Of a stretch of 20,192 nucleotides of DNA, positions 1,829 to 2,480 are shown piece by piece. This DNA is from a virus (Duplodnaviria > Heunggongvirae > Uroviricota > Caudoviricetes): IMG/VR virus record IMGVR_UViG_2537561937_000013, positions 1 through 20,192 of that record; one strand, 5' to 3'. The notes beneath the pieces were generated by a model. That model was not told where the DNA came from and ran no database searches. It saw only the letters and a program-made list of their open reading frames with translations. Each line of letters starts with the position of its first letter. The stretch's first letter is position 1. The translations under genes and the position numbers were made by a program.

Positions 1829-2107
1829 ATGGATAAAAAGCAAATTGAGGCCCTGCAATCTATTATTGAAAAACAAGATGAAGCTATCAGGATTCTTTCA
1901 TATCGCACTGATATGATACTAAATATGCTTTCTGCATTAACGGCTGCGCTTGGTGGTACAAAAACAAACGTATACCGCGAAGTTGTTATTCAACAGATAG
2001 ATAAATTTGAAAAAACCATACCAGGTATTAATGCTCATCTTGCAGAACAAGAGAAAGACCATGCTCTTATGGCAATTTCTTCAGTAGCTCTCCCGAAAGT
2101 TGAGTAG
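1829..2107 (+). CDS. Hypothetical small protein, predicted helical/coiled-coil, rightward gene embedded in the leftward early operon
   Basis: Very strong RBS (AGGAGGGTGAA) immediately before ATG at 1829 (MDKKQIEALQSIIEKQDEAIRIL...). Low-GC coding sequence. The track ORF begins further upstream at 1790. Confidence 0.5.
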   Translation: MDKKQIEALQSIIEKQDEAIRILSYRTDMILNMLSALTAALGGTKTNVYREVVIQQIDKFEKTIPGINAHLAEQEKDHALMAISSVALPKVE

Positions 2108-2480
2108 TTTTAATTGTTGTTTTGAAATAATCACTGCTTTCACATTTGAGTGATTTCATGGCAATCCAAATGCGGGCCTCTGTGCCTGCATTTGGTTCCA
2201 GTTGCTGTAGACGTTTTGCGTCTTCCAAAAGTAAGGCGATAATGTGTTTCAGCTTCTCATCATTTGCTTGATTCTTGTTTTCAGGCGAATTCTGTCCGCC
2301 GAATAGGCGCTTCTCTTCATACAGACCTATAAAGGCACGACGCACGTTACCGGATATAGTATCGATGGTTTCCTTTTCTACAGTACTCAGGTCAAGAGTC
2401 GCCAGTTGAGAGCGAACCACATTCGATGCCATTTCCTGGAATGGTACTGGTAAATCTTTAAATTCCATCATCAACCTCAT
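2067..2480 (-). CDS. Hypothetical protein (137 aa), second gene of the leftward operon next to the repressor
   Basis: Track ORF. ATG start at 2478-2480 overlaps the stop of the upstream 77-aa gene by 1 nt (coupled). Not arginine-rich, so not an obvious lambda N homologue. Confidence 0.5.
   Translation of the reverse strand: MRLMMEFKDLPVPFQEMASNVVRSQLATLDLSTVEKETIDTISGNVRRAFIGLYEEKRLFGGQNSPENKNQANDEKLKHIIALLLEDAKRLQQLEPNAGTEARIWIAMKSLKCESSDYFKTTIKTTQLSGELLKKLP

Follow-up and report, generated by a model that had tools for sequence, protein, structure and literature searches.

The morons of lambdoid phages, as described by Hendrix and colleagues, are independent promoter-gene-terminator units that are inserted between conserved genes. 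Leaders that sequester the Shine-Dalgarno (SD) sequence are known from the RNA thermometers ROSE and FourU and from the mRNA switch of lambda cIII, and hairpins of the ompA type act as stabilisers at the 5′ end. Furthermore, type I toxin-antitoxin (TA) loci such as txpA/RatA and bsrG/SR4 contain convergent 3′ overlaps. In the Rac prophage of Escherichia coli K-12, the order of genes is racR, ydaG, ydaF (DUF1391), sieB on the opposite strand with a 4-bp 3′ overlap with ydaF, the small RNA (sRNA) gene kilS, and kilR. Here, we analyse a locus of similar order in the IMG/VR virus record IMGVR_UViG_2537561937_000013 (Caudoviricetes), of which positions 1 to 20,192 form the window, i.e. the whole stretch of DNA under analysis. 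The locus holds a convergent, overlapping gene pair, and its plus-strand gene is headed by a conserved, structured leader that also fronts unrelated small genes in other prophages.

The window is a lambdoid prophage with an immunity and early-left region of the Qin/dicBF type. Its order is repressor, DUF1391 gene, a gene of 133 amino acids (aa), the plus-strand gene on the opposite strand (41-bp overlap), the sRNA DicF, and dicB; repressor, DUF1391/ydfA gene, DicF and dicB share one strand. In the rightward direction, a domain search of the window found cro and a ydaT-like gene. The K-12 Qin map reads dicA-ydfA-ydfB-ydfC-dicF-dicB, and in the window the gene pair stands in place of ydfB and ydfC; in one E. 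coli relative it is located after ydfA-ydfB-ydfC. A dicBF-type operon has been described without N (PMC10448788). An earlier reading of the window, made from the letters of the DNA (the sequence-only reading), had seen here a neighbourhood of moron and exclusion genes. In terms of position this was borne out: the gene order is as in K-12 Rac, the plus-strand gene occupies the sieB slot, and the slot is a hot-spot for cargo genes.

The gene pair itself is ordinary prophage packing, and the interest lies in its surroundings, in the hairpins most of all. Our reading, to which we give a probability of roughly 0.55, is that a small expression cassette, oriented against the early-left (dicBF/Qin-type) operon, is seated in the slot of Rac sieB, and that the plus-strand gene is its cargo. 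The parts of this cassette would be a weak sigma-70-type promoter, a leader RNA of ~85 nt and one small open reading frame (ORF). The leader would combine two 5′-proximal hairpins with a third helix, in which an anti-SD (CUCCU) pairs with a very strong SD.

The structured leader

The sequence-only reading had listed two hairpins ahead of the plus-strand gene, GCCGGA-N12-TCCGGC at 1746-1769 and CTCCAC-N7-GTGGAG at 1777-1795, and a very strong ribosome-binding site (RBS). Both hairpins and the RBS (AGGAGGG at 1818-1824, 4 nt before the ATG) were recovered at these positions. The hairpins do not merely precede the gene, however, but are the first two helices (HP1 and HP2) of a conserved leader with three helices, the third of which (HP3) is predicted to mask the RBS.

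A covariance model of the leader, R1, has its only real match in the window at 1743-1831. Folding of 1690-1840 gave a plus strand that is more stable than its shuffles (z = -3.46), whereas the minus strand is not (z = -1.2). Covariation was assessed with 26 distinct leaders aligned to R1, with 500 shuffles and with slid controls. Paired cells amount to 93.4% across the 26 leaders, compared with 38-55% in the slid controls, and compensatory changes occur in 35 cells, a value that none of the 500 shuffles reaches (10.0 ± 2.3). Five of the six HP2 pairs and one HP3 pair (A-U 14, U-A 10) show changes on both sides, and HP2 exists in at least four sequence versions, all of which pair. In HP1, compensatory changes were found by eye in the two most distant members (GCCGGG/CCCGGC in locus L097, GCCUGG/UCAGGC in L098). 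An independent MAFFT alignment showed covariation in the same direction, and RNAalifold recovered all three helices. By these comparisons the leader is shown to be conserved and folded, with a third helix that should mask the SD. HP1 is nearly invariant at a protein identity of 44%, which suggests specific recognition rather than a generic stem.

The first base of HP1 forms a sharp onset of conservation in at least seven unrelated upstream contexts, and this onset could mark either a transcription start or a recombination junction. Mobility of the IS200/IS605 or integron type, with HP1 as the end hairpin, was considered and rejected, as the window lacks a further copy resembling HP1 and no recombinase is found nearby. 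Searching positions 1-5000 against Rfam (cmscan, E ≤ 1) returned DicF, STnc100 below the threshold and, by chance, the Trp leader, and gave no match at 1743-1831. The STnc100 match (1237-1446, minus strand; 38.7 bits, gathering score 47) covers the DicF-dicB interval and the start of dicB. The chance match is probably due to a terminator-like hairpin, AACCCGCA-ttcat-TGCGGGTT followed by TTTT, which lies directly after the repressor gene (2872-2902, minus strand) and was missed by a strict terminator scan. A limited literature search yielded no description of the leader, and the dicBF papers do not treat the opposite strand.

Among the alternatives, the one that survives best assigns the hairpins to the leftward transcript, where they would serve processing, stability or read-through of the ydfABC-dicF-dicB precursor, the cargo having merely landed beside them. 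[quoted passage not shown] Combined with the DicF match, this places the cut at ~1632 in the window, more than 100 nt from the hairpins, which were therefore rejected as the RNase III site of the DicF precursor (PMC10448788). Strand preference is divided among the helices. HP2 and HP3 pair equally well on either strand, and a C.A mismatch of HP2 in the Salmonella lineage becomes a G.U pair on the minus strand; HP1, in contrast, pairs in 91% on the plus strand and in 67% on the minus strand, its flanking U.G and G.U pairs (66 cells) exist on the plus strand only, and the plus strand alone folds better than its shuffles. HP3 moreover pairs with the SD of the plus-strand gene, with compensation from A-U to U-A. 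HP1 and HP2 lie within a conserved stretch of ~330 nt upstream of dicF that is present in ~4600 E. coli records, and they are kept in loci without cargo, including K-12 Qin; on the other hand, the leader travels with its cargo to contexts that lack dicF (L011, L152/L159, L157 and the Shiga toxin (Stx) phage L281). We regard a leftward role as unlikely for the locus as a whole, and as possible for the cargo-less relics.

A hot-spot for small cargo genes

The distribution of the leader was surveyed by an HP1 pattern scan of IMG/VR and of one genome per species. The leader fronts at least 12 unrelated small ORFs in prophages of Escherichia, Salmonella, Edwardsiella and Pluralibacter and in Stx phages. 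These comprise the 92-aa family of the window, its type-2 branch, ORFs of 64, 77, 73, 76, 69, 61/80, 94, 57 and 104 aa, and a proline-rich peptide together with a 156-aa protein with two transmembrane helices. Wherever neighbours could be read, these run leftward; as a rule, the cargo adjoins or overlaps the nearest of them at its 3′ end.

The limits of the exchangeable segment are sharply defined at the leader: phage matches to 1500-1828 end exactly at the ATG. Alternative modules (L003, L082/85/89 and L092) have both flanks in common. In Stx and PPompW phages, the same upstream sequence leads into an unrelated 77-aa gene, which is convergent and overlaps by 23 bp with the gene of a 135-aa protein carrying the N-terminal domain (N-domain) of the minus-strand protein. 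In the Stx phage phi367, the leader precedes a 73-aa gene deep in the early-left operon, with an overlap of 68 bp. The module of the window occurs in 169 of 5426 complete E. coli genomes, and an identical copy is carried by EPEC E2348/69 (NC_011601.1, 1432395-1433034). About 60 of the 129 leader sites in IMG/VR are devoid of cargo, and at these the leader ends just after the anti-SD or within HP2; in L004, L005 and K-12 Qin, ydfC abuts such a (truncated) leader. The slot is thus shown to be a hot-spot. The coordinates of all features are given in Table 1.

Table 1. Features of the early-left region in the window (positions refer to the window; HP, helix of the leader)
Feature	Position	Strand	Remarks
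dicB	1081-1269	-	Pfam DicB, 127 bits
DicF sRNA, downstream in the leftward operon	1444-1495	-	Rfam RF00039, 76.7 bits
Promoter-like element	1711-1739	+	-35-like TTTTCA 1711-1716, 17-bp spacer, -10-like TAAACT 1734-1739; read by eye
Conserved structured leader (5′ untranslated region), 89 nt	1743-1831	+	Covariance model R1, 105.7 bits
HP1	1744-1771 (core 1746-1769)	+	GCCGGA/UCCGGC, extended by U.G and G.U pairs
HP2	1777-1795	+	
HP3	1798-1802 with 1818-1822	+	Anti-SD CUCCU pairs with AGGAG of the SD
SD; start codon	1818-1824; 1829-1831	+	AGGAGGG; ATG
Plus-strand cargo gene	1829-2107	+	92 aa from ATG; phrog_18692; predicted three-helix protein
Exchangeable segment: cargo gene and C-terminal half of the leftward gene	1829-2303		Bounded by the leader and the N-domain coding region
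Convergent 3′ overlap, 41 bp	2067-2107		Plus-strand C-terminus ..MAISSVALPKVE; on the other strand, minus-strand tail ..TTQLSGELLKKLP
Early-left operon gene (minus-strand gene of the pair)	2067-2468 (ORF to ATG 2480, 137 aa)	-	133 aa
C-domain of the minus-strand gene	2070-2264	-	Stand-alone gene in Salmonella
Linker of the minus-strand gene	2265-2303	-	
N-domain of the minus-strand gene	2304-2468	-	aa 5-54, 80% identical to proteins with unrelated C-terminal halves
DUF1391/YdfA-family gene, first gene of the early-left operon	2480-2713	-	Pfam PF07151, 97 bits
cI-like repressor	2905-3678	-	Pfam HTH_3 and Peptidase_S24
cro	3671-3886	+	Pfam P22_Cro

The relic in K-12 Qin (L283, MG1655, 2529-2634 on the minus strand, corresponding to ~1649028-1649133 of NC_000913.3) scores 55 bits with R1. 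It consists of HP1, HP2 and the anti-SD, without SD or ORF, and follows directly on the stop codon of ydfC, into which it points. An isolated HP1 copy of 30 nt and 97% identity was seen in the Stx2 phage P13374 of E. coli O104:H4 (L280, 2501-2530) and its relatives. In these O104:H4-type Stx2 phages it sits in the early-left region between an ea22-like gene and ORF16, and it is probably a remnant of the cassette.

Some of the cargo genes were inspected individually. The 77-aa and 73-aa proteins are unrelated to the 92-aa family according to hhalign, and L010/L011, which at first appeared to hold a stand-alone plus-strand gene, is a deletion derivative with a truncated copy. The Edwardsiella loci L152 and L159 as well as L153 carry an operon of two genes behind the leader, the gene of a proline-rich peptide of 30-32 aa and then the 156-aa gene (two predicted transmembrane helices, phrog_6315). 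This 156-aa protein was rejected as a SieB candidate, as it has no SieB match in Pfam and a BLASTP E-value of 22. The 94-aa cargo of L200 and L233 in IMG/VR (MAKFTVRIELRD...) gives a borderline match to Pfam GhoS (21.2 bits, gathering score 21); GhoS is the endoribonuclease antitoxin of the type V GhoT/GhoS system. With PADLOC-DB 2.0, no significant match was obtained for the plus-strand protein, the minus-strand protein or seven other cargo proteins, the IetAS system of the window serving as positive control. This complete anti-phage system lies at 7471-10864 (plus strand), in a low-GC stretch (37-43%) between the replication genes and the Q antiterminator, and includes the AAA ATPase IetA (384 aa, 474 bits) and the subtilase IetS (754 aa, 995 bits).

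The gene pair and the proposed cassette

The sequence-only reading was right in describing two convergent ORFs, 1829-2107 on the plus and 2067-2480 on the minus strand, that share 41 bp (2067-2107). Both genes are real and under purifying selection. RefSeq/PGAP annotates them in near-identical E. coli loci, the plus-strand gene as WP_000358771.1 (92 aa) and the minus-strand gene as WP_001339605.1 (133 aa, ATG at 2468). An in-frame GTG at 1790, within hairpin 2, is an unlikely start of the plus-strand gene. Conservation of this ORF had been set as a test beforehand, and the ORF passed it with purifying selection: the ratio of nonsynonymous to synonymous substitutions (dN/dS) is 0.17-0.25 towards Salmonella and other homologs, and the corresponding polymorphism ratio (pN/pS) is lowest in the annotated frame among the six frames. 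It is intact in 98 of the 105 loci that hold the full module.

The family of the plus-strand protein has 90-93 aa and extends down to 33% identity, with members in other prophages (33-44%) and in five genomic contexts. It is small and unannotated (22 clusters), and an exhaustive profile search through 1.84 billion representatives brought up no more than 15 members. A search for related loci with a 4-sequence alignment gave nothing in genome contigs and only near-identical copies in IMG/VR. Residues R26, S35, R50, F60 and E75-K76 and a C-terminal SVALP motif are conserved, and a distant type-2 branch (MSTENDEIINS..., 91 aa) is joined to the family by hhalign with 96% probability. The AlphaFold2 (AF2) model has helices at 3-42, 46-58 and 69-85 (predicted local distance difference test, pLDDT, 71), i.e. 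a soluble three-helix protein, without predicted transmembrane helices.

As the sequence-only reading had stated, neither product of the pair is recognisable. Pfam, NCBIfam and PADLOC contain no above-threshold match for either protein, PDB sequence searches returned nothing, and the matching PHROGs are of unknown function (phrog_18692 with 210 bits for the plus-strand and phrog_1363 with 153 bits for the minus-strand protein). Foldseek against PDB and BFVD gave generic three-helix matches only, the best being ribosomal protein bS20 (E = 0.27). No paper naming either RefSeq protein was found in the literature search.

For the minus-strand gene, the ORF and its place in the leftward operon stand as first described, while the length of 137 aa probably does not: because every homolog begins with MEFKDLP, translation probably starts at ATG 2468, which is preceded by the SD GAGG, and not at 2480. 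The neighbouring DUF1391/YdfA gene is likewise shorter in RefSeq (50 aa, 2480-2632). The ORF of the minus-strand gene is intact in 105 of the 105 loci holding the full module. Its N-domain is widespread (259 clusters), and the PHROG matches split where the N- and C-terminal parts divide. In Salmonella prophages, the counterpart of residues 73-137 is a 71-aa gene that stands alone (60% identity, dN/dS 0.18).

The sequence-only reading had also spoken of a gene pair, and that the two genes form a unit was not upheld. Distant members of the plus-strand family adjoin S24 repressors (L097, L098) or an integrase (L095), have a terminator-like hairpin of their own and lack an overlapping partner. A minus-strand variant of 88% identity occurs without the plus-strand gene in 39 genomes, and a variant of 124 aa with a different (B-type) C-tail is found with two or three other cargo genes or with none. 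Each gene thus occurs without the other, contrary to the obligate co-occurrence of a TA pair; the two genes are therefore not an obligate pair, and most probably not a functional one either. One cargo replacement was caught in the act in E. coli GN06667 (L282, 1100-1560), where the 92-aa gene has given way to a 57-aa ORF with a terminator, headed by a leader whose HP2 is a different one. The last ~45 nt of the plus-strand gene survive there because they encode the tail of the convergent gene.

These observations bear on the view that the pair is a two-component module, in which the proteins interact (the plus-strand protein with the minus-strand C-domain, in the manner of toxin and immunity) or the 41-bp antisense overlap lets each mRNA regulate the other, similar to a type I TA system. 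The type-1 plus-strand gene and the A-type C-domain do co-occur in E. coli and Salmonella, the overlap is again 41 bp in Salmonella (L006), where the C-domain is the separate 71-aa gene, and in L094, and a comparison of the window with L003 shows a joint swap of the cargo and of the C-terminal half of the minus-strand gene. Across cargo types, however, the overlap varies from 0 to 68 bp or a terminator stands in between, and in L282 the 88%-identical minus-strand variant is combined with a different cargo. The SVALP motif is conserved also in family members without an overlapping gene, and the conservation of the overlap is therefore driven by the plus-strand frame. Among toxin and antitoxin families, the best match was RelB-like (E = 0.011, 15.9 bits, cutoff 50), with nothing in Pfam and PADLOC. 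A two-component module is accordingly quite unlikely, and the overlap is best explained as a by-product of packing and not as the regulatory design of a two-gene system.

Concerning the signals in front of the cassette, the promoter-like element reaches 8/12 matches to the consensus. A -10-like hexamer was found by eye 4-8 nt upstream of HP1 in ~10 unrelated upstream contexts, often with an extended TG; examples are TGtTATTAT (L094), TGgTATTAT (L153), TGaTAACAT (L157), TGaTAAGCT (L009), TAAAAT (L012) and TATTAA (L011). The foot of HP1, at ~1745-1747, would then be the start of transcription. Upstream of the leader, at 1703-1720, there is a third conserved hairpin, GCCCTGAcuuuTCAGGGA; on the minus strand it reads CCCUGA-AAAG-UCAGGG and is reminiscent of a lambdoid boxB. 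It belongs to the backbone shared with cargo-less phages and is overlapped by the putative -35 hexamer.

From these elements, we propose that the cassette is a self-contained unit that would be transcribed against the repressed early-left operon, i.e. in the lysogen. The 5′ hairpins might stabilise the mRNA or be recognised by a factor, and HP3 would limit translation or make it conditional. Exchange of cargo may proceed through recombination between two conserved stretches, the leader on one side and the 5′ half of the neighbouring leftward gene on the other. This would explain why the cargo varies together with the 3′ half of the neighbour and why, as a rule, it adjoins or overlaps that gene at its 3′ end. 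The product would be an accessory protein whose most likely mode of action is to bind a protein of the host or of a phage, be it in superinfection exclusion, defence or host modulation. A role in exclusion or defence, with expression in the lysogen, is a tentative suggestion by analogy of position; evidence for an exclusion protein, of a kind that the sequence-only reading had named for this neighbourhood, was not found, as the plus-strand protein has no similarity to SieB, Rex or PADLOC models.

Several points weigh against the cassette reading. The leader alignment was fitted to R1 and most of its members were gathered with an HP1 pattern, so that the invariance of HP1 is partly circular. 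The consensus promoter scan, which requires 9/12, found nothing upstream of the plus-strand gene, and the promoter consists of hexamers read by eye. There is no terminator after 2107 in the window, and the plus-strand gene runs 41 bp into the convergent gene. The plus-strand ORF is frameshifted in 7 of the 105 loci and therefore dispensable, at least in some hosts. Confidence in the structure model is modest, and the fold searches gave generic helical matches only. No cargo matches any PADLOC model, which leaves defence or exclusion as an analogy of position. Finally, the cargo-less loci, K-12 Qin among them, retain the anti-SD along with HP1 and HP2, and these hairpins, like the Salmonella version of HP2, could belong to the leftward transcript instead.

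A further alternative sees convergent transcription as the main job of the locus. A constitutive promoter opposing the early-left one would damp leakage of the toxic downstream products DicF, DicB and YdfD by collision or antisense RNA, with the ORFs as hitch-hikers. Wherever the neighbours are readable the cassette is indeed antisense to the surrounding early-left genes, the convergent units of the window are not separated by a terminator, and at sites devoid of cargo the promoter-like element and the first part of the leader persist, from which an antisense RNA running into ydfC would arise. Hitch-hiking is hard to reconcile with a strong, conserved SD that has a dedicated masking helix, and with purifying selection on the cargo ORFs. 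Moreover, several cargo genes have a terminator of their own before the leftward gene, and in L095 and L152 the cassette is present with no toxic gene evident downstream of it. This explanation is improbable in our view.

The cassette reading can be extended to a leader that senses infection or induction, an idea which, taken with all its parts, we consider a long shot. The cargo mRNA would be made in the lysogen and kept untranslated by the helix of anti-SD and SD until it is switched on. A related lambdoid phage on superinfection, or the prophage itself when induced, would supply early-left transcripts complementary to HP1, HP2 and the anti-SD; those of the common cargo-less phages, which are non-complementary to the SD, could titrate the anti-SD and thereby turn on translation of any exclusion or defence cargo that the leader fronts. 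If true, the leader would be a portable riboregulatory "socket" for prophage accessory genes. Least probable of all, and by a small chance only, is that the plus-strand ORF arose by chance or is a functionless remnant in decay, since the small, unannotated family, the frameshifted loci and the truncated copy in L010/L011 are set against a dN/dS of 0.17-0.25 with the annotated frame as the best, full-length conservation down to 33% identity in five contexts, a strong and conserved SD, PGAP annotation and a PHROG of its own.

The significance of the locus lies in the use of one folded, putatively SD-masking leader as a common front end for at least 12 unrelated tiny genes in a fixed, counter-oriented slot. 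With the HP1 pattern or model R1 as a handle, uncharacterised accessory genes of prophages can be collected, likely candidates for a role in exclusion, in defence or in host modulation. A shared post-transcriptional control of such genes would be a testable case. Homology at the leader and in the neighbour would account for the swap of the 3′ half along with the cargo. In addition, the relic in K-12 Qin adjoins the well-studied dicBF operon.

Elsewhere in the window, positions 4316-5293 (plus strand) encode a replication-initiator-like protein (HTH_36) with a repeated DPSxxDPS motif (...TVDPSNIDPSTVDPSNFDGSTVD...). The motif suggests that the coding DNA contains repeats of the iteron type, similar to those of lambdoid O genes.

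Comparison with known systems

By the tests run, the pair is neither a TA system nor a known defence system. It resembles txpA/RatA and bsrG/SR4 in that convergent prophage units overlap at their 3′ ends. Unlike in those loci, both partners code for proteins, neither is a small hydrophobic toxin, and they occur independently of each other. With SD-sequestering leaders the locus has in common a helix that pairs the SD with an upstream CUCCU and stable hairpins at the presumed 5′ end; in contrast to them, the leader has no Rfam match and its HP1 is nearly invariant.

The plus-strand gene has the same slot and orientation as Rac sieB, counter-oriented between the DUF1391 gene and the sRNA and kil genes. 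It differs from it in sequence and fold, in the absence of a Pfam SieB match and of predicted transmembrane helices, and by the R1 leader, which Rac sieB lacks. Hot-spots in P2 and P4 phages likewise occupy a fixed position in temperate phages, with conserved flanks and many alternative, unrelated genes (PMC9122126). Different from these, the cargo here is made up of single tiny ORFs (57-104 aa, and once a peptide with the 156-aa membrane protein) without PADLOC matches, and the conserved flank is a folded leader instead of core genes.

The likeness to morons is seen in an insertion that separates what relatives have side by side (ydfC or the N-domain gene on the one hand, the region upstream of dicF on the other), in an orientation independent of the operon, and in stand-alone relatives with a terminator of their own; a hairpin with a T-run follows the cargo in L097 and L282. 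The lower GC content noted by the sequence-only reading agrees with this, although the dip is modest (41% over 1751-2500, 48-49% on either side). In the window itself, unlike in a moron, the unit has no terminator, and its promoter is a putative one. The main difference concerns the organisation of the cargo: classical morons have been described gene by gene, whereas here a single conserved, structured leader and SD serve many unrelated cargo genes, which are exchanged at a fixed position.

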